In this document: positions 16,021 through 61,180 of the stretch, in pieces
How the letters are laid out: every line of letters starts with the position of its first letter
Numbering within the stretch: position 1 is the first letter of the stretch
From: Octopus vulgaris
Lineage: Eukaryota
NCBI GenBank assembly: GCA_951406725.2
Contig: OX597818.1
Coordinates: 133,672,001-133,736,000, forward strand
Direction: 5' to 3'
DNA length: 64,000 nt
Notes under the pieces: model-generated
The model's database searches: none
What the model saw: only the letters and a program-made list of their open reading frames with translations
What the model was told of the DNA's origin: nothing
Translations under genes and position numbers: made by a program

Positions 16021-16109
16021 ATATATATATGTGTGTGTGTATATATATATGTGTGTGTGTTTATTATATATATATATATATATATGATAGAAAGGCCATT
16101 TAAAATGTG

Positions 16110-16308
16110 ACCGCGTGTGTATCATTGGCAATTTCTTTCCTCCATCTTCCCTTTCTTGGATCTTTCCTTTTCCTATGTTACTGATGAAGAGCTCCACTCG
16201 AAACATTAAAATCCTTCTTTCTTTCCTTTCCTGAGCATCCAATAACACTATACTTGTTCCAAGTCCTCGTGTTGTTGTGTTCTTTCTTTGTGTTTTCATG
16301 TTTGGTTA
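16110..16308 (+). mobile_element. PLE-type pLTR fragment with degenerate minimal hammerhead (16176-16212)
   Basis: CTGATGA-AGAG-CTCCA-CTC-GAAACATTA; homologous to the minus-strand copy at 31155-31280; flanked by (TA)n. Confidence 0.65.
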
Positions 16309-16610: not shown

Positions 16611-17153
16611 CTAGCAAAACAAGAAATAAAGATAGACTTTTTTCTATTCCAAAGAAAAACGATTTTATTCACACAATTATGCAACCAAAGAATTTAAAGT
16701 ATCAGTAATGATAAGGCTGTTGACTGGGAGAACACAAACATGGTTTAAACAGTAAGCTTGGCAGGAAAGAAACGTGCCTTTAAGCAGTACAAAAACAACA
16801 AAAAATGGAAGGTGCAGTTATGTACAGGTTGACAGAAGAAAAGCAGGACAAAAATGATGCATGCAAATGGGTTATCTGGAGGTAAGTCTAGATGGAAAAC
16901 CATGATGATATTTTTGTGCAAACTGCACATGCATTTTTCTCCCATTCGTGTAGTATCAATCACAACAGCTGATGTACTTGTGCATACAAATGCACATTCC
17001 CACGGCTTTATCGATCGCATTCTCACATGGAATAGACTTTTGTAACGTTTTCAAGACTTATACACGCCCTGATTTGAGCGCAATCAGATGGAGAATGCCC
17101 GAGATCCTAGAAGACACACACACAGACAGACAGAACGGATTTTATATAATAGA
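16611..17153 (-). mobile_element. Putative non-autonomous Helitron
   Basis: Minus strand starts A|TCTATTATATAAAA followed by (TCTG)n and ends CTAG|T at 16611; the subterminal hairpin is not evident. Confidence 0.5.
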
Positions 17154-17476
<323 letters not shown>

Positions 17477-17568
17477 TATTAATAATAGTAAAGAATATAA
17501 AATTCCAAACTTAAGGGAAAAATTCAATTTAGCAATACTAAATCAAATTTTACAATATATAATATATA

Positions 17569-17826
17569 TATATAATTAAGAGAAATAACCTCTATTAAGT
17601 AATTCAATTGATAGTGAAAGATATTATCTATATTGAATCATGTAGAAAAAATTTAAATATATTTAGATAAATATTATTCTAAAAATCACTAAATTATTAA
17701 ATTAAGTGATTTTTTGAATAATATTTATCATAATATATTTAAATTTTTTCTACATGATTCAATATAGATAATATCTTTCACTATCAATTGAATTACTTAA
17801 TAGAGATTATTTCTCTTAATTATATA
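17569..17826. repeat. Long palindrome 1 (arms about 120 bp, spacer about 14 bp)
   Basis: TAATTAAGAGAAATAA...AAAATCACT is mirrored by AGTGATTTT...TTATTTCTCTTAATTA with few mismatches. Confidence 0.95.
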
Positions 17827-17843
17827 CATGTAGTATATACATA

Positions 17844-17889
<46 letters not shown>

Positions 17890-18021
17890 TTCAGCAACAA
17901 TTTAGATTCAAATGAATATGGTACTTAATTTAGATACACCAGAATTTTGTATGGTGTTACCCATAAAAATATGTGGGGTGATTATAATCAAAAAATAATA
18001 AGCAACAAGAATGAATCCGGT

Positions 18022-18113
18022 AATTTAGTACAATTGTTTCATACTACAACATTTTATTAAAAGCTGTAAATATTACAGCATATTTAAGATGTTGAGTAAT
18101 CTTCAGCTAAATT
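18022..18113 (-). ncRNA. Hammerhead ribozyme motif in left arm of palindrome 2
   Basis: AATTTAG-CTGAAGA-T-TACTCAACAT...ATGTTGTAGTA-T-GAAAC-AATT-GTA-CTAAATT: 7-bp helix I, long helix II, palindromic loop III, GUA cleavage triplet. Confidence 0.75.
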
Positions 18114-18402
18114 TTATATAGGTTTTCCAATAATATAAAGTTTTCAAATCAATTAATAACATCTTAGGGAAGGTAAATATACAGATAAAGATGTAGATAT
18201 GAATCTTAGGAACGTGAGGTCGTGTAGTTCAGATGCTAACTGACCAAAACCTCCGTTGCAACCGAGGTCTTGGTCAGTTAGCATCTGAACTACACGACCT
18301 CACGTTCCTAAGATTCATATCTACATCTTAATCTGTATATTTACCTTCCCTAAGATGTTATTAATTGATTTGAGAACTTTATATTATTGGAAAACCTATA
18401 TA

Positions 18403-18493
18403 AATTAGCTGAAGATTACTTGGCATCTTAAATCTGCTGTAATATTTACAGCTTTTAATAAAATGTTGTAGTATGAAACAATTGTACTGAATC
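18403..18493 (+). ncRNA. Hammerhead ribozyme motif in right arm of palindrome 2
   Basis: TTAG-CTGAAGA...GAAAC-AATT-GTA-CTGA; mirror copy with a weaker helix I. Confidence 0.65.
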
Positions 18494-18539
18494 ACCGGAT
18501 TCATTCTTGTTGCTTATTATTTTTTGATATATATATATA

Positions 18540-18617
<78 letters not shown>

Positions 18618-18649
18618 TATTTATATATATATATGTATATATACACATA

Positions 18650-18714
<65 letters not shown>

Positions 18715-18771
18715 ATATATATATGTATATATAACTGTAAATGTAATATGTGACAATTATTCGGTAGCCAT

Positions 18772-18832
18772 GATAAAACTCCGAGTTTCGGATGCCAAGG
18801 TGGAAATCCACACCGCCATCTCTTCAGTTATC
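18772..18832 (-). ncRNA. Hammerhead ribozyme motif in left arm of palindrome 3
   Basis: GATAA-CTGAAGA-GATGGCGGTGTGGATTTCCACCTTGGCATCC-GAAACTC-G-GAGTT-TTATC: helix I GATAA/TTATC, helix II GATG/CATC plus GGTG/CACC, self-complementary helix III. Confidence 0.7.
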
Positions 18833-19173
18833 TGGCCATTGGAAAAAATGCTATGAATATGACCGTTATACAAAGGGAAATTACTGTGCGATTGACCGTT
18901 ATTAAGATAAAAGAGCTATTTGAATGACCGCTAAGTGAGGGGAGGGAGTAAAAGTAAGGAGGTAAAAAGTTCATAGTATTCGCATAATCGCGCTTGTGTA
19001 GGTATGAACATGCACACTTATGCGAATACTATGAAATTTTTTACCCCTTTACTTTTACTCCCTCCCCTCACTTAGCGGTCATTCAAATAGCTCTTTTGTC
19101 TTAATAACGGTCAATCGCACAGTAATTTCCCTTTGTATAACGGTCATATTCATAGCATTTTTTCTGATGGCTG

Positions 19174-19234
19174 GATAACTGAAGAGATGGCAGTGCGGAT
19201 CTCCACCTCAGCACCTGAAACTCAGAGTTTTATC
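19174..19234 (+). ncRNA. Hammerhead ribozyme motif in right arm of palindrome 3
   Basis: GATAA-CTGAAGA...GAAACTCAGAGTT-TTATC; helix II more decayed. Confidence 0.6.
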
Positions 19235-19362
19235 ATGGCTGCCAAATAATTGTCACATATTACATTTACAGATAAACTCCTCTATTTACATAATATCGAG
19301 GTCTCTTTCATATATATTTATATATATATAATCAAAATAAGCAACAAGGATATCCAGAGGTA

Positions 19363-19452
19363 ATGCAGTACGATCGTTTCATGCAACTCCATTTAGTTGA
19401 ACAATGCAAATATTACATCAGTTTTAAAATCTAGAGCAATCTTCAGCTGCAT
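19363..19452 (-). ncRNA. Hammerhead ribozyme motif in a diverged homologue of the palindrome-2 arm (19331-19455)
   Basis: ATGCAG-CTGAAGA-TTGC...GCAT-GAAAC-GATC-GTA-CTGCAT; helix I and loop III differ from 18022-18113 but keep pairing and palindromy. Confidence 0.75.
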
Positions 19453-19722
19453 AAAAATATAGAATTTAGTTAAATTCAAAGGGTTCATTTGTATAGTTAT
19501 TCTATTCACCAAAACCACAAAGAGGATAAGTAGATAGACAAAGGACATGTTTCAACAACATCATAGTTGTAACTGATATTTTTACACAGGAAGACACTGC
19601 TTATCATTGATTTTAATTTGTTATTCAGATTTACTACCATGGGGGGAGGGGTTTAGCTCCAATTTATAGACTAGTTTATCAAGTCTAATGGAAACTAGAA
19701 TCTATCCATAAAAGATAGGGTA

Positions 19723-20025
19723 AAAATACAAAAAATAAACAACCACAATTCATCTTTTAGAGATAAACATAAGGCAAGTTGCACAACATTGTCCAATACA
19801 ATTTGGGAGTTAAAAGAAAAGAAAATTATATTTAGCCTTAAATGGGACATAGTAAGAAAGGCACAACCTTATAAAAATAGTAGATATGGATGTGAGCTTT
19901 GCTCTATGGAGATATATGAAATTTTGAAACATAGGGATAATGTAAACTTATTAAATAACCATTTTGAACAAGGAGTATCGTGTATACATTGTACTACCCG
20001 TATTTTTAGATATTTAAAAAAATAG
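19723..20025 (+). pseudogene. Penelope-like element GIY-YIG endonuclease, C-terminal half (5'-truncated)
   Basis: Open frame NNHNSSFRDKHKASCTTLSNTIWELKEKKIIFSLKWDIVRKAQPYKNSRYGCELCSMEIYEIL...LLNNHFEQGVSCIH matches the PLE pattern NHxxSF...TxLSxxIWxLK...W.I...CxLC..E...LLN...CxH. Confidence 0.85.
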
Positions 20026-20393
20026 CATTCTGTTATCCCTAAATTTTAGATCTTAATGTTTTTTTTTAAATCTATAAGGAAATAGCAGACCCTATTATAT
20101 TTTATTATTTAATCAGCAATAGTTACTAAGAAATTAAATTTAATTTAATAACATAAGCAAATTGAATAAAGTTGAATAATTTCTTTTTAATTTCTAAAAT
20201 TATTACAAAAATTCTATATATCTAATGAAGTCATTAAGTTGTATACTTACTCCACAATAAGTTTTAAAGAATTGGTAATTTTCATATCCATTTCTGCGAG
20301 AATTCTACTCTACCTAATCCTTTTCGATATTATAAATATTACCGCTAATAAGCCTAAATTATTATTCCCCATATAACCACACTTCACTCTTAA

Positions 20394-20683
20394 TCTTTAT
20401 ATATAAAACTGAAGTTGTGTGAGAGTCTGTCTCCTCCGAATTAGATTCCTAACTACTCCCACATTTTGCTGTGCAGTTTAACCAAAAGTGGGTATCTTAT
20501 AGTCGTGATTCATATAGAGCCCTTCTGGGTATTAGCGCACGTCTACGATTTAAAAAAAAATTTACCATCATTTTTTCGGATTTTTCATGCATTTTTTTAC
20601 TCAGTTTATATAAGTAACTCTCTAAAAATGCTTATATAGTTATTTCCCTTACAAACCCGAGCAACGCCGGGCAATACTCCTAG
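20394..20683 (+). mobile_element. Non-autonomous Helitron, copy 1
   Basis: A|TCTTTATATATAAAA 5' end; 3' hairpin CCCG-AGCAACGC-CGGG then CTAG|T; inserted at an AT dinucleotide, no TSD. Confidence 0.85.
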
Positions 20684-21103
20684 TACAAAATATAGGATTT
20701 CCATATAAATAAATAATTCTATTTTCATTTTTTTTAAAGTTACATTTTGGTTACCTCCCTTCCATTGTATTTTAAAGATTTTGGTATGTTAGTCAATTAA
20801 TGCCTTATTTACTGAGAATCTCCTCTTAAAAAGATATTCCAAATCTCCTTAATTAATATTTATAACCCGATAAAAAATAGATAATAATATCTAAATTACT
20901 CGGTTTCTGTTTCTCTAAAACAACTCTACCCTCATGATCTTTGTATGTATTAGTAAGCTTTATACAAATAGATTATAAATATATAAGTAAATAACATTTT
21001 ATAAGTACCAATTAATAATTATAAATTATCATATAAGGAATAATAATAGCATTTTCTTAAATCTATAATAAAACCCAAAATTTTATAAAAGTTTTATTAA
21101 TAA

Positions 21104-21495
21104 CTAGCAGTATCGCCCGACGTTGCTCGGGTTTGTAAGGGAAATAATTATATAAGCATTTTTAGAGATGTAAAGTATAATAGCCATCTCAATATAGCTA
21201 ACCACAAAGTGGGGTGTTACTGTAGCTTTTTACGTTCTGAGATTTAATAATACATTTTTAGAGAGTTACTTCCCTTATATAATAGCAAAAAATGCATTAA
21301 AAATGGGAAAAAATTATGGTAAATTTTTTTAAATCGTAGACTCATCGTAGATGCGCGCTAATACCCAGAAGGGCTCAATATGAATCACGACTATAAGATA
21401 CGTGCTTTTGGTTACACTGCACCGCAAAATGTGGGAGCAGTTAGGAATCTAAATCATAGAAGACAGACACACAACTTCACTTTTATATATAAAGA
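21104..21495 (-). mobile_element. Non-autonomous Helitron, copy 2 (longer, inverted)
   Basis: Same termini as copy 1 on the minus strand with about 100 bp more internal sequence. Confidence 0.85.
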
Positions 21496-21789
21496 TATAA
21501 TTTTTGCCCAATAACTTGATCATCTCTTTATCCAGTATTAAACACTAGTCATTTATGGATATTCTCATGATAAGTAAATAAAAATTTTAGTTTAAAAATT
21601 ATAGAATTATAAGAAAATTTCTTCTAACAACTTACCTTAGCTATTAATATAAATAAGCGAGGTCTGCTTTCTATGCTGACATAGGTTGGACGGTTTGACT
21701 GAGGACTGACAAGCGAGGAGGCTGCACAGGGCTTCAATCTGATCTGGCAAGGCTTCTACAGCTGGATGACCTTCTGTAGAATATCCTTT

Positions 21790-30725: not shown

Positions 30726-31136
30726 AGGCGCAGGAGTGGCTGTGTGGTAAGTAGCTTGCTAACCAACCATATGGTTCCGGGTTCAGTCCCACTGCGTGGC
30801 AACTTGGGCAAGTGTCTTCTGCTATAGCCCCGTTCCGACCAATGCCTTGTGAGTGGATTTGGTAGACGGAAATTGAAAGAAGCCTGTCGTATATATGTGT
30901 ATATATATAAGTGTGTGTGTATATGTTTGTGTATCTGTGTTTGTCCTCCTAGCATTGCTTGACAACCGATGCTGGTGTGTTTACGTCCCCGTTACTTAGC
31001 GGTTCGGCAAAAGAGACCGATAGAATAAGTACTGGGCTTACAAAGAATAAGTCCCAGGGTCGATTTGCTCGACTAAAGGCAGTGCTCCAGCATGGCCGCA
31101 GTCAACTGACTGAAACAAGTAAAAGAGTAAAAGAGT
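30726..31136 (+). mobile_element. SINE family A, full length
   Basis: A and B boxes; tail (GTAAAAGA)n. Confidence 0.92.
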
Positions 31137-31154
31137 ATGTGGTACATGTAAAGT

Positions 31155-31282
31155 ATTAACAGATGCTCAGGGAAGGAAAGAAAGATGGTTTGATATTTCG
31201 AGCAATGCTCATCTTCAGAAACAGAGGAAAGTCCAATAGAAAGGAAGATGGAGCAAGAAAATCGCCAACAATTCACATGTGG
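31155..31282 (-). mobile_element. PLE-type pLTR fragment with minimal hammerhead (31188-31222)
   Basis: GTTT-CTGAAGA-T-GAGC-ATT-GCTC-GAAA-TATC-AAAC: helix I GTTT/AAAC and helix II GAGC/GCTC; homologue of 16110-16308. Confidence 0.7.
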
Positions 31283-31362
31283 TTACATTTTGGATATATA
31301 TAAAGAAAGAGTAAAAAGAGAGAGAGTGTATATGTGTGTGTGTGTATATATATATATATATG

Positions 31363-33713: not shown

Positions 33714-34850
33714 AATTTTTTTCTGATGTTATGTAGTCTGATCAATAAGTATCCGGATTGTTGCCATAGTAACAAAGCTAAAGCACACAGAGTGAAGTCA
33801 CTTGGTACAGATTGACCTTGAACTCTGCTGTGCATGTGCACTAAGTTTTAATGTTCCAGCTAACTTCTACCGTCTACAGCAGTGCTTGGAAGGAAGGTGT
33901 GTAGCATGTGATCATTACATTGACAATGGGAGAGGAAGTTGAGCAGAGAAACTGCATCAAATTTTTTCTGATGTTATGTAGTCTGATCAATAAGTATCCG
34001 GATTGTTGCCATAGTAACAAAGCTAAAGCACACAGAGTAAAGTCACTTAGTACAGAATGACCTTGAACTCTGCTGTTCATGTGCACTAAGTTTTAATGTT
34101 CCAGCTAACTTCTACCGTCTACAGCAGTGCTTGGAAGGAAGGTGTGTAGCATGTGATCATTACATTGACAATGAGAGAGGAAGTTGAGCAGAGAAACTGC
34201 ATCAAATTTTGCCAAAAGCTTGGCAATACCTGGTCAAAGGCCTACACAAAGTTTTCAAAAAGTTTTCATCATTCTTGACATAATCAAGGAGATCTTGATC
34301 TCCTTGATTGTGCAACTGAGACCCAGGTGTCTTTTTGGTCAGCTGAAAGCAGTTTTGGCACAAACTTGGCAGGCACGCGTCTCATACCCAAATCTTCAGT
34401 GATAATGGACTGAACTGAACTGTAACTAATCTGTACATCCTCTGATAACTCACGGATTGGTGATTCAATGATTTTCCTTCACAGCTGCATGCACAACTGT
34501 GATGTTTTTCTCAGTTCAGCTGGTTGCGGGTCTCCCAGAACATTTGTCAATATCAACATTTTTTTTAGCCATCTTGGAAATGTCTGAACCACTCATACAC
34601 TTTTGAGTGGCTCCATACACTTTCTGCAACTTTGCATAGGCCTCTGAGCAGGTATCGCCAGGACAACTTTTTCTGTTATAGTCAATCCGACAATCACACG
34701 CTACACACCTTCCTTCCAAGCACTGCTGTAAACAGCGGAAGTGAACTAGAATGTTAAACCTTAGTGTGCATGTACAGCGGTGTTCAAGGTCAATCTGAGC
34801 CACGTGGCTTCACCCTGCATGCTTTGGCTTCGTTACTATGGCAACAGACC
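33714..34850. mobile_element. Rearranged mariner remnant: tandem 245-bp duplication of the left end plus an inverted partial copy
   Basis: TIR-like TA-TGTAGTCTGATCAATAAGTATCCGGA twice (about 33730 and 33975); plus strand MREEVEQRNCIKFCQKLG; minus strand ...SGRPATS*TEKNITVVHAAVKENH...EDLGMRRVPAKFVPKLLSADQK (mariner HTH and WVPxxL-like linker). Confidence 0.85.
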
Positions 34851-45199: not shown

Positions 45200-47631
45200 T
45201 GTGTCTATATTTAATATGAGTATATGTGGCAGAGAAAACTATGTGTGTGTAGGAGTGTATATAAGCATGCCAAGTATATGTGAGTATGTTCTGGCTCAAG
45301 TTATCTTTTATCACATTTTCTGTTTAAATTAAAACAAATACAGCTGAGAAAGTTGGATTTCAATCAAGTATCAATTGGAACTCAAACAAAATAATTATTT
45401 CTCATATGTTCATGCATAAATCTTGAGAATTCCTATTGAATTCTATAGAAAAGTTGATAGCAATGGACACTCTTTTTGCAAAACTTAAAGGAGGCAAACA
45501 TTACAGATAGAATAATTTGGTATATTTATTTGCCAAGAAATATTCAACAAAAACATTAATCTTGCATTCAGAACAATGTGAGCTGATTCAAGTTGAAATA
45601 TACTGTTATAATGTAGAACAACCATTCTGCAATGCCATTTATTGCCATGCATAAGAGTCAATTAGTCTAGGAAAGAGAATGTTTTCAATGAATATGAAGA
45701 AACTCATAGCTATTACTGAAAATATTTATACCAGCAAATATGGAAAAATAAGAATACTGTCTTCTTTTATGATATAAGAAGCTGTATTTACACTAGAAAT
45801 AATGAAACCTTAACAAAAATTCCATTTTAAAAGGCACAGGCTAGGATTCACAAGGTAAATGCAAAGATTTGATAAAACTAGCTCTGAATAATTGAAGCTA
45901 CACACTCTACCCAAGCCTTGGAATGTCATATGATAAAAGATCATTCGTGCATGCGCACGTGCATGCATGCGTGTGTGTGTGTGTGTTGTAGCTGTTTCTT
46001 CAATATGTTGCCAAAGAATTAGCAATTAGTTGCATAATGATCTGAATTTTTTCAATAAGAACACCCTCAAAATACCTTAACGATTATTAAGACATTTTGA
46101 GGGTATTCTATTGAATATGGAACCAGAACAACTAAAATATAACATAATTGCTCTCATTGCAAGAAACAAAGTTCATGTTCCAAAGTTTATTGTATTTTTA
46201 CTTTTAAAACAAAGAGAATATCTAGAAGAAAGTTATTTCTCCTTGAAAAATAAGGGGTTCAATTTAAAAATAACCACCAAGCAAAACGAAACTGCTTGGC
46301 ACTGATAAACTATGTATTATTCTGTTGTGTTATTGAATGGACGATCAGAAATGTCAATAAACATATAAAATATTGATTTATTTTGTCTAGATACATGGTT
46401 TTCTTTTGCCTAGTTGCCACATGTTTTTTTGTAAACAGTTAAATCTATTACGGTATATTACTAATCTTATAATAATTCTGCTTGTCATTCCATTACATAG
46501 CTTGTTGGTAATGCTTTCACATGGTTAGAGAAAAAGGAGAAAGAAAAGAGGGAGAGAGAAGCGTCCATGATGTGAGGTAGAGGCAATGTAATTTCACATG
46601 ATTAGGTGATGGTGGTGATGGTGGTGGTGGTGGTGATGATAATGGAGGTGGCATTGGTGACTGGATAGTGAAAAGCGTATGTTTTTAAAATTGAACTAAG
46701 TTTTTATATCACCTATCACTTAATGCATGCGCATAAGTGCAATTCCATGAAATATTCACACTTATTTGTGTAACAGATATATGCAATTTAACTAAAGGTT
46801 GTATCATATGTATGGGATATTTCTTTGTTTGTTTATGGGGGAAATGGTAAAATAAGAGTGAATATTTATTTTACGAGTGCTGTGTATTAAGTCTATGAAA
46901 CTGTGCATAAAATATATAAAGTGTCTATATAAAATGCATTAAGCAATCATTGTATTCCAATTTCTTTCACTTTTCAATGAGTAATAGATGAGCAACTATC
47001 TTTCCATACAGACACAGCACAGGCCATGCTTTCAGGTTTTCTGGCTAAAGTTTTCAGAAATAACCCAATAGGTATTCCATTAATTCTGTGAAATATTCAC
47101 GAGTCCTGCTAGTAATTATTAACTACCCACTACACTCGCGGAGTGGTTGGCGTTAGGAAGGGCATCCAGCTGTAGAAATACTGCCAGATCAGACTGGAGC
47201 CTGGTGCAGCCCTGGCTTCCCAGACTCCGGTTGAACCGTCCAACCCGTGCTAGCGCGGAAAACGGACGTTAAACGATGATGATGATGATGATGATGATGA
47301 AAGATGAAAGTAAGATTATGAACTTTAACATGAATGTGACAAAATGGCACAGTTGTAAAAGCAACAGAATAAAGAGGCTGCAGTATATATTCTGGTGCTT
47401 TGCATTCCAAGTTCAAATCCCCGACTCTGGTCAACTTTGCTTTTCAGCTTTTCAGGGGACAATAAAAAATGTACCAGTCAAGAGTAGTGGTCTGATGAAA
47501 CTGAGTGCTTTTAACAGAGTCAACTCTGCTACAAACATTCAGGTTGGGTCTTTTGCTTGAGGCTACCTTCTAATAATCTCAGAGGCATTACCATTTCTCC
47601 TGACAATGAAATATTTAAAAAAAATTTAAAT

Positions 47632-58520: not shown

Positions 58521-61180
58521 ATAATTGATTAAAAATACAAAAATTACACAAATATTCAACAAAATGACAGATATTGTTGCAGTTCAAATATTCATTGTTT
58601 TTTGTTGTCGTTGTTATTAAACATATAATAATTACGTTAATGTGTAAAAATCAACAATAGTTATTTATTTTTATTTTTATTTTTATTTGTCAGCAGTTAT
58701 ATGTTTTTTAGTTATTTGTCAACCTTGTTAGAATCAAAGAGGGAAAGAACAAGAGAAAACATTTATCTTCATCTGCTGTACAAAATTCTTTCTTTATCCT
58801 GACCATCATCTACAACTAAACAAGGGAGCTCAATCTAGCAAGGAGACCTTTATATGACCACTAAACTACTAGAAATAACAGTCAAATCTCCTTCAAATCA
58901 CACGTTAACTTAAAGATGTAATAGACAATGTAGTTCTAGATATATAAAAAATAGTTACAGATGGAAACCTGTTGATCATAAGTCTAGCTGATCAGGGTTG
59001 AGATGGGGCAAAACAGTAACAATTCTTGAATTTCTATAACCCATTTTTGTGCAGTGCTACTTAAAGTGAAAATTCAAGATTGGTAGGAAGAATCCTGATA
59101 ACATTCAGAACAAGAGCACAAGTGTTTGTACTTTTTCTCTGGGGGATATTTGCACTCATCTAAATTATTGATCCCATCTATGATCACTATATACCGCTGA
59201 GCCCTGCCACACTATTGAACCAAAGGCAATGTAAAGGAACTACACACGAAAAAAAAATCTGGATCCAAGCATCAGATGACTGATTGGGAGAGGTTGAAAG
59301 CTTTGAAGTTATATTCCTGGCAATAAAGAAATTAACTATAATAATCATTTATATTTGGAAAGTTTTCAAAAAACTGGTACCAAATTTTGGCATTCAAAAT
59401 GATGCAAATCCACAAACAAGGTGCCATTGTGTAGCTTCAAAACTACTGCCTTCTTCCTTTCATATGAGAAAAAGGTACTGCAATTGTAACAATCTGGGAT
59501 TCCAAAGTCCACAGATCCATCCTCAAAGTTCACCCTTAAAATCCAAGGAATACACACAGAAGGGGATATCAACAATTACAAAACTAATTGGACATGCAAC
59601 AGTGCAACAAACTCTAAGAAACCTAAAATAATTGGGGACTGGAAGGTGTCTAGTTATGAAGCACTACCTCAGAAAACCTGTCCAATCCAAACTAGCATGG
59701 AAAAACAGAAAACACGTAAAACAATGATGATGGTAATGACAATGATGATGAAGAGGAGGAGATGGAGAGTTACTGTATTACAATGCAGTAACTCCTCATC
59801 TCCTCCTCTTCATAACTCTACATAATTCTACTTGCCCTACTCTGTCTAGGTTACATGTGCTAACTGAGTGATTGATAGTAGGAAGGTTAAACAAACTGTA
59901 TTTACTGCAGACACAAATATAACCCACAATAAAAAAACCCACAAATATCCAAATTTGCAAAACTATAAAATTAAAATATAAACAGAAGTCAGGAGTCAGT
60001 GACAGAAAGGCATAGGAAAGAGGTTAAGACATCTTAAAAGGTATCTTCATAATGTGAACCCCAATAAGTTTCTAACTATTTTCATCTATTCAATGTTTGG
60101 ATGAATGTCCTTGATTACAAGACTTCCCAGAAATATCTCCCTGTATTTTCAGACAACTGTGTGACTATCGGGGATTTTTTTTGGGGTTTTTTTTTTGAGA
60201 TATTAACAACTGAATTGACTATTTTGGTTCTTGGCAGTGTTATTTTCCTCACTGAAGATATTATATATATTTTTTTGTTACTGTGTGCATTTTTAAAGGT
60301 CGGTAGGCATTGTTGATGAAGATTCAAATAATTGCCATAACAATCCCTTCCTTATTAAATTTCATCTGGTTTTCATTTCAACTTTTACATTCTAAACTAA
60401 CCGAACATTTTAAGAAGTGGAATGCAAAAATTATAATTTTCACTTCTTCGTCCAGTGTGCATCATCCATTCTCATCACATGTCCAGACAACTGTGTTAAT
60501 AATGACATGTGATGAGAATAGCTGATGCAGGCTGAGAAGCCAACAACAAAGAAGACAAGTCCTGGGAGCCGTTAGTGAAACACTAGTCAGGCAGAACTAA
60601 ACCGAAGAAAGCATCAGATAAAGGAAACGATGATGGTAGGAATAAAAGGGAGAAGAAATATTTTGCAGGCTCACACAGCTCATGTCAGTATAAAGAGTGG
60701 GGAGAGACAAGAGACATTCAACTGAAGAGGATGATAATGATAATCCTGACAGCACCAATACACTCATACAGTTGAAGATGATGGCGATAATAATGTTTGG
60801 AAATTCTAATTATTAGTAAAAAAAAAAATTAAAATCAAAAGATGAAAATTATATTTTAAAAATATGACTTAAAACCATTTTCTTTCTTTTTGCTATTTTC
60901 TTTTTGTGGAATAATAAAGGGTTACATTCTTTGACTTCTAAAACCAACTGAATATTTTCCAATGCACCAATAGTTATTTAATCAACTCACCAACTACAAG
61001 CTGACTAACTTGATCCCACAAACTTGGGAACATTTTGTTTTGCTGTACACACCTATTACCATCTCGCAAACAGCATTCCTTGCTCTCCTAGGATGCCTAA
61101 TCTTTGAAAAAGCCCCTCACCAACCAACACCATTCTGAAATTTACTTCATGTCAAATATTGTATTTTATATTTAATATGC

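Follow-up and report, generated by a model that had tools for sequence, protein, structure and literature searches.

The analysed window, a 64-kb stretch of Octopus vulgaris DNA, is AT-rich (GC 22-40% in 2-kb bins) and crowded with microsatellites (103 TRF rows) and short interspersed repeats; inspection by eye identified no host genes in it. Within it lies a stack of three long palindromes, P1, P2 and P3, whose separate axes fall within 1.4 kb of one another. P1 (17569-17826) is AT-rich and consists of two 127-bp arms (17569-17695 and 17700-17826) around a 4-nt loop, with 122 of 127 columns alike and 5 different. P2 (17987-18528) has arms of ~270 bp (17987-18258 and 18259-18528) that meet with a 0-nt spacer; 260 of its 272 columns are alike and 12 differ, and the axis carries two mismatches within 11 bp. 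P3 (18735-19271) has arms of ~253 bp (18736-18987 and 19018-19270; 234 of 253 columns alike, 19 different) and a 30-nt centre that is imperfect yet stays in register about the axis 19002/19003. The earlier note had placed three such inverted repeats here, P2 among them without a spacer, and we confirm these arms at 92-96% identity. It had also called the three unrelated, and pairwise comparison finds no similarity above z 3.

Every unit of the stack is flanked by (TA)n, as delimited by TRF: to the left, at 17143-17473 (164.5 units, part of the target field), between P1 and P2 (17821-17887), and between P2 and P3 (18527-18733). These intervening tracts had been described before, together with one short unique segment; in place of the latter we find three, all one-sided. 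The first (17474-17555, minus strand) lies outside the left arm of P1 and the second (17888-17986, minus strand) extends the left arm of P2. Neither has a second copy in the window, and judged from sequence they are possibly the candidate tail of P1 and a candidate long tail of P2, respectively. The third (19272-19309, plus strand) is a 38-nt tail borne by the right arm of P3 only; it belongs to the family sequence in part of the copies and shows high summed contig depth, and at 19270-19274 the loose ends of contigs enter (TA)n or (CA)n. A weak match to this tail near 21650 is within chance, and a search of the window for further copies of the three palindromes, of the one-sided segments and of the single arm F4 described below returned none. 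In microsatellite flanks, and with no empty site for comparison, a target-site duplication would be indistinguishable.

Type I hammerhead cores occur at 18106 (-), 18409 (+), 18827 (-) and 19179 (+), one in each arm of P2 and P3 and every one facing outward, as had been read from the letters earlier, with the qualification that the copy in the right arm of P3 is decayed. The minimal motif in the left arm of P2 (18022-18113, -; core 18106) combines a 7-bp stem I, a 59-nt stem II region and an 8-nt palindromic stem III, with a predicted cut after GUA at 18029, while its counterpart in the right arm (18405-18490, +; core 18409) has a 4-bp stem I and a predicted cut after GUA at 18486. The minimal motif in the left arm of P3 (18772-18832, -; core 18827) has a 5-bp stem I, a GAUG/CAUC stem II and an extra C before GAAA, with a predicted cut after GUU at 18777; in the right arm (19174-19234, +; core 19179; predicted cut 19229), mutations weaken stem II and the letters at 19192-19214 are unlike those of most family contigs. 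The descriptor detects no hammerhead core in P1. A further motif sits in F4 (19327-19635, -; inner end approximate), a single arm of a P2-related family (aligned to P2 at z 12.5, ~75% alike), with its core at 19446 and a predicted cut at 19369. F4 has no mirror arm in the window, and contigs bridge it and the sequence beyond in overlapping pieces (19401-19703). It falls inside the interval covered by the earlier note, but the text of that note leaves it undescribed.

The motifs show the core CUGANGA, GAAA and UH together with stems I and II. The descriptor, written after the motifs had been seen, matches five times in the region, against a mean of 0.0015 (maximum 1) in 2000 dinucleotide shuffles of the region and a mean of 0.18 (maximum 2) in 100 shuffles of the whole window. 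With the Rfam models, suggested earlier as a check, the window has no match of any kind at gathering score. By E-value the region gives 41 matches, all of them sub-threshold and due to generic hairpins or (TA)n, and not one is a hammerhead. Across stems I-III of P2 left, P2 right and F4, 37 of 37 cells are paired, a count that, with three sequences of which two are mirror arms, is descriptive and not statistical. Four two-sided changes occur among them, two in stem I and one each in stems II and III, and with compensation in all three stems these hammerheads look conserved as RNA structures. Stem III forms a perfect 8-nt palindrome in both P2 and F4, where a double change has left the symmetry intact, and a 9-nt palindrome with an unpaired middle base in P3. 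The computed energy of its self-duplex is -8.4 to -12.0 kcal/mol, and the motifs are predicted to act as dimers through it, in line with the dimer model proposed for minimal PLE (Penelope-like element) hammerheads via a palindromic stem III (Cervera and de la Pena 2014, PMC4209133). The two P2-versus-F4 changes that keep stem III palindromic (18030-18040 and 19370-19380, both minus strand) are also synonymous in a frame reading ETIV; by analogy with the Anolis element, in which the ORF begins inside the hammerhead (PMC11167929), this is a hint that the frame may be an ORF start. Three metagenome loci matched the P2/F4 hammerhead pattern and were set aside as chance, having neither similarity to the window nor an inverted partner.

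In their type I topology, short stem I, long stem II and palindromic stem III, the motifs resemble metazoan PLE hammerheads. Their opposite-strand pairing, here ~300-350 bp apart, recalls Schistosoma mansoni, in which dual minimal hammerheads on opposite strands, 100-700 bp apart, are ascribed to truncated PLEs (PMC4209133). The base of stem II is where they depart: the usual combination of a G10.1-C11.1 pair and an unpaired base between 9 and 10.1 is found neither in P2/F4 nor in P3. P2/F4 have the unpaired base, but show U-A flanked by U-U where G10.1-C11.1 is usual, along with the 59-nt stem II region. P3 left has the G-C pair; its A9 is followed by no unpaired base, and the 3' side instead carries an additional C ahead of G12, a C that also occurs in other members of the P3 family (loose ends at 19217). 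These departures are relative to the main text of PMC4209133, the figures and supplements of which may show such variants, and the non-standard stem II base is a minor variant. Elsewhere in the window, a solo copy of a further family (31113-31291, -) carries a textbook PLE minimal hammerhead whose core at 31218 (-) has, unlike P2, F4 and P3, both G10.1-C11.1 and the unpaired base. A 74%-alike relative at 16102-16289 (+) has a weaker hammerhead; both solo copies adjoin (TA)n tracts and are without an inverted partner.

Head to head with F4 lies a 108-residue frame (19699-20025, +) that represents the C-terminal part of a PLE GIY-YIG endonuclease. An exhaustive protein search with this fragment yielded 1705 proteins at E<=0.001 (best 8.6e-18), and its top Atlas match is a GIY-YIG cluster. 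Word-index protein searches with the fragment gave no match and Pfam only two weak, unrelated ones; among 10 relatives, Pfam placed GIY-YIG in 2, below cut-off. By eye, RT motifs can be made out in the long relatives together with a Cys-rich linker and an endonuclease at the C-terminus, which is the Neptune-type layout (C-terminal GIY-YIG, Cys-rich linker); the clade of the remnant is assigned by motif. The profile of the relatives matches only 19699-20025 within 17450-21500 and has no match in P2 or P3, while frameshifted traces, seen by eye only, continue upstream to ~19635. The remnant is itself repeated, with a summed depth of up to ~11,000 at 19850-19884 in runs X1 and X2. Neither the 3' end of the endonuclease copy nor a matching 3' pLTR was found downstream in the window, and the 370 nt past its stop show no likeness to F4; the remnant and F4 may therefore be of different families. 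One X2 contig links 19471 to 19874, for which a deletion allele is equally possible. In its position next to F4, the remnant is placed as a truncated direct copy would lie after an inverted pLTR.

Other repeats surround the stack. Positions 20390-20683 and 21103-21500 hold an inverted pair of one short element around ~420 nt of AT-rich DNA, the left copy having internal deletions; we take the ends of this pair to resemble short elements of the Helitron/Helentron type. A short-element end at 17040-17155, weakly like the pair (z 5-6), abuts the (TA)n field. Small imperfect palindromes of ~65 nt without a hammerhead motif occur at 59748-59813 and 46051-46115, and at 33717-34210 a 245-nt unit is duplicated in tandem (97% alike); a relative of it, inverted and 80% alike, lies at 34664-34846.

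The differences between arms carry a history of their own. Eleven of the 19 differences in P3 are of CpG type, at several of which one arm reads TG where its partner reads CA, and such reciprocal changes imply that the arms decayed independently after insertion. Independent decay is something an artefact could not produce, which bears out the earlier remark that arm mismatches speak against a faulty assembly, and it also argues against upkeep of the duplex. It is very improbable that the palindromes arose by fold-back in the assembly or the library: although no placed contig spans the stretch, and inverted PLE structures have been noted as troubling assemblies (Craig et al. 2021, PMC8557442), the arms differ at 5/127, 12/272 and 19/253 columns, three separate axes lie within 1.4 kb, and two strand-switch joints of the F4 family were each found in two different runs. 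The centres of P1, P2 and P3 are all imperfect near the axis and cleaner farther out; the clustering of mismatches near them (p = 0.039, in a window picked after looking) is a hint only. We read the imperfect centre as a short inverted repeat present in the element before insertion and used as the joining point. Mismatches of this kind would lessen the instability expected of perfect palindromes.

Contigs of public sequencing runs, four of the 24 listed, bear on what unit is copied. Those of three DNA-type runs (X1, X2 and X7) were placed at 80% likeness on 18975-20000, a stretch that comprises the P3 centre and right arm, its flank, F4 and the sequence beyond, with P1 and P2 lying outside it. 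In all, 9883 (X1), 8102 (X2) and 3490 (X7) contigs were placed, so both the P3 and the F4 family are very abundant; peak depth exceeds that of a single contig by a factor of the order of 10^4, summed depth being no copy number. At the outer end of P3 the summed depth is 43-52x that beside its centre, a contrast to which divergence under the 80% cut-off may contribute. In X1 it drops 19-fold from 19080-19114 to 19010-19044, and very high depth is limited to ~250 nt around the P3 hammerhead. Loose ends at 18995 (29, 27 and 24 contigs) share one common upstream sequence that is unlike the P3 left arm, which means that the P3 family extends past the P3 centre; upstream of 18995 it can be followed for at least 30-63 nt without reaching an end. 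The contigs starting at 18995 fully account for the first depth bin, and hardly any depth is left for copies that share the P3 centre.

Of the 15 joints listed (43 in all), 8 switch strand, no two of them at one coordinate pair; five belong to the P3 family and three to the F4 family. Each of the eight is represented by one contig per run, at a depth of 49-75 in X1 and X2, and two of those in the F4 family recur in a second run; the joints have 32-49 letters on the short side, and geometry sets the orientation for only some. Other P3-family copies end at 19270-19274, running into (TA)n or (CA)n, and none of the placed contigs spans the palindrome stretch. Both families are also present among the contigs of run X14, whose nature as RNA is only a guess and which carries no weight for or against expression.

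Taken together, the fall in depth, the run-on past the centre, the scattered joints, the ends in (TA)n or (CA)n and the one-sided tail indicate that the copied unit is one arm and that the inversion point varies, a statement that holds for the P3 and F4 families only. The earlier note had favoured the palindrome as a mobile mini-element and had named variable centres as the mark of its alternative, inversion at each insertion. In the P3 and F4 families the outcome is the alternative, since relatives run past the P3 centre and switch strand at many places, each in a single contig.

The contrary idea, that the whole palindrome is mobile, its master being a palindromic RNA or DNA whose centre survives copying, strikes us as improbable. 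Two of the three palindromes do have loops of 0-4 nt, short imperfect inverted repeats in all three centres could recur, and the contig survey covered the P3 and F4 families rather than P1 or P2. Set against this, there is almost no depth for contigs crossing the P3 centre and its relatives run beyond it, strand switches fall at 8 different places, the tail is one-sided, the P2 relative F4 has no mirror arm in the window, and a fully paired RNA would mask its own ribozymes. Such masking had been foreseen for any read-through transcript of the locus, and computation agrees: those of P2 and P3 are predicted to fold into long hairpins at ~-410 to -425 kcal/mol with 93-97% of bases paired.

We instead consider it highly probable that the palindromes are separate, dead-end Penelope-like insertions of a hammerhead-bearing 3' end, with the mirror arm made anew each time. 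P3 comprises the 3' ends of two copies from a very abundant family, both 5'-truncated and placed head to head. The PLE origin and the fold-back geometry proposed earlier are thus upheld, with the proviso that P1 has no hammerhead and its putative PLE origin is drawn from context.

In the mechanism we propose, an RT-endonuclease protein would nick both strands within (TA)n, and each nick would prime cDNA from one of two nearby RNA start sites, which would leave a tail on one side only. Once 130-310 nt long, both cDNAs would halt, to be joined at a short, imperfect inverted repeat that the element already contained. Alternatively, one cDNA could snap back at that inverted repeat and give an identical product, so that one locus cannot separate the two routes; two-strand priming is slightly favoured, as it accounts for the one-sided tail. 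Since (TA)n would remain on both sides of each insertion, later elements could land in the same field, and we attribute the stacking to this target preference. The copies would then decay neutrally. The hammerheads are likely inherited parts of the parent RNA, with a role at this locus that is putative at most.

Endonuclease-positive (EN+) PLEs form head-to-head inversions with junction palindromes and an optional tail, and snap-back self-priming has been proposed for the head-to-head junction palindromes of rotifer elements (Arkhipova et al. 2013, PMC3846280). Standard PLE features, as described, include an inverted 5'-truncated copy, a tail of 30-40 bp at one end and insertion into (TA)n, a target typical of the Neptune, Naiad and Hydra clades (PMC8557442). 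An Anolis PLE protein has been shown in vitro to cut AT-rich DNA on both strands and to extend both; reverse transcription starts at two internal sites, the spacing between which equals the tail, and the hammerhead is protein-assisted and dispensable for insertion (PMC11167929). The present units share with those of EN+ PLEs the head-to-head inverted ends, the junction palindrome, the strong 5' truncation, the (TA)n target and the one-sided tail (38 nt in P3). They differ in having no ORF between the arms and in the stacking of three units of unrelated families, and the candidate tails of P1 (~80 nt) and P2 (~100 nt) exceed the published 30-40 bp.

As a variant of this explanation, arms built at each insertion might descend from ORF-less, SINE-like PLE derivatives of a few hundred bases that are mobilised in trans, which we hold as a tentative possibility, short of even. 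The confinement of very high depth to ~250 nt around the hammerhead, with the 19-fold fall in X1, would fit such masters, as would the lack of an endonuclease match in P2 and P3, and non-autonomous PLE derivatives that form pLTRs have been described (PMC8557442; bioRxiv 10.64898/2026.07.22.740005). On the other hand, no end of the P3 family appears over the 30-63 nt or more by which it continues beyond 18995, autonomous PLEs yield the same depth profile when strongly 5'-truncated, and a repeated PLE endonuclease remnant adjoins (summed depth up to ~11,000).

The step from there to a new retrozyme-like class, as the earlier note had suggested, is not borne out. In non-LTR retrozymes, units of 150-450 bp that each bear a type I hammerhead are repeated head to tail, and the same-strand hammerheads release circles (Cervera and de la Pena 2020, PMC7229834; bioRxiv 10.64898/2026.07.22.740005). 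The palindromes resemble them in being short, ORF-less at the locus, PLE-related and equipped with a type I hammerhead, but here the copies are head to head with one hammerhead per strand, and a search of the region for a head-to-tail hammerhead tandem found none. The arrangement is, moreover, already in print: head-to-head ends, one-sided tails, (TA)n targets, opposite-strand hammerhead pairs and siRNA from inversions are all already published for PLEs. PLE families, some recently active, have been described in Octopus vulgaris, in a paper whose main text makes no mention of hammerheads or palindromes (PMC13282606), and within a literature coverage that leaves out most subscription journals we found no publication describing hammerhead palindromes stacked in this way in the genome of an octopus-like animal.

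Retention of the stack by the host as a source of long dsRNA, for endo-siRNA or as an A-to-I editing substrate, seems quite unlikely. Read-through would yield hairpins of 130-270 bp, and in Drosophila siRNA matches the inverted regions of rearranged Penelope copies (PMC3681739). Nevertheless, the arms diverge by CpG-type and other changes with no compensation seen and no host gene was identified by eye in the window; even if true, such RNA would be a known by-product. A more far-reaching reading joins several of these strands: the P2 and P3 families would be ORF-less Penelope parasites whose built-in RNA hairpin makes fold-back routine, leaving thousands of (TA)n-embedded palindromes, a variant hammerhead acting only as a dimer, and a large unrecognised pool of dsRNA feeding siRNA or A-to-I editing. 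We regard this reading as unlikely.

The palindrome stack thus most likely represents ordinary stumps of PLE insertion rather than a new self-contained palindromic element, and the locus is a clear example of the known by-products of that process. Whether PLEs integrate by two-strand priming or by snap-back self-priming is an unsettled step, and a genome-wide collection of such stumps, whose centres are imperfect but in register and whose tails are one-sided, can bear on it. The variant base of stem II, for its part, marks hammerheads that the Rfam models miss. Should the families prove ORF-less, with fold-back the norm and their products feeding small-RNA or editing pathways, the significance would be greater, but only then.
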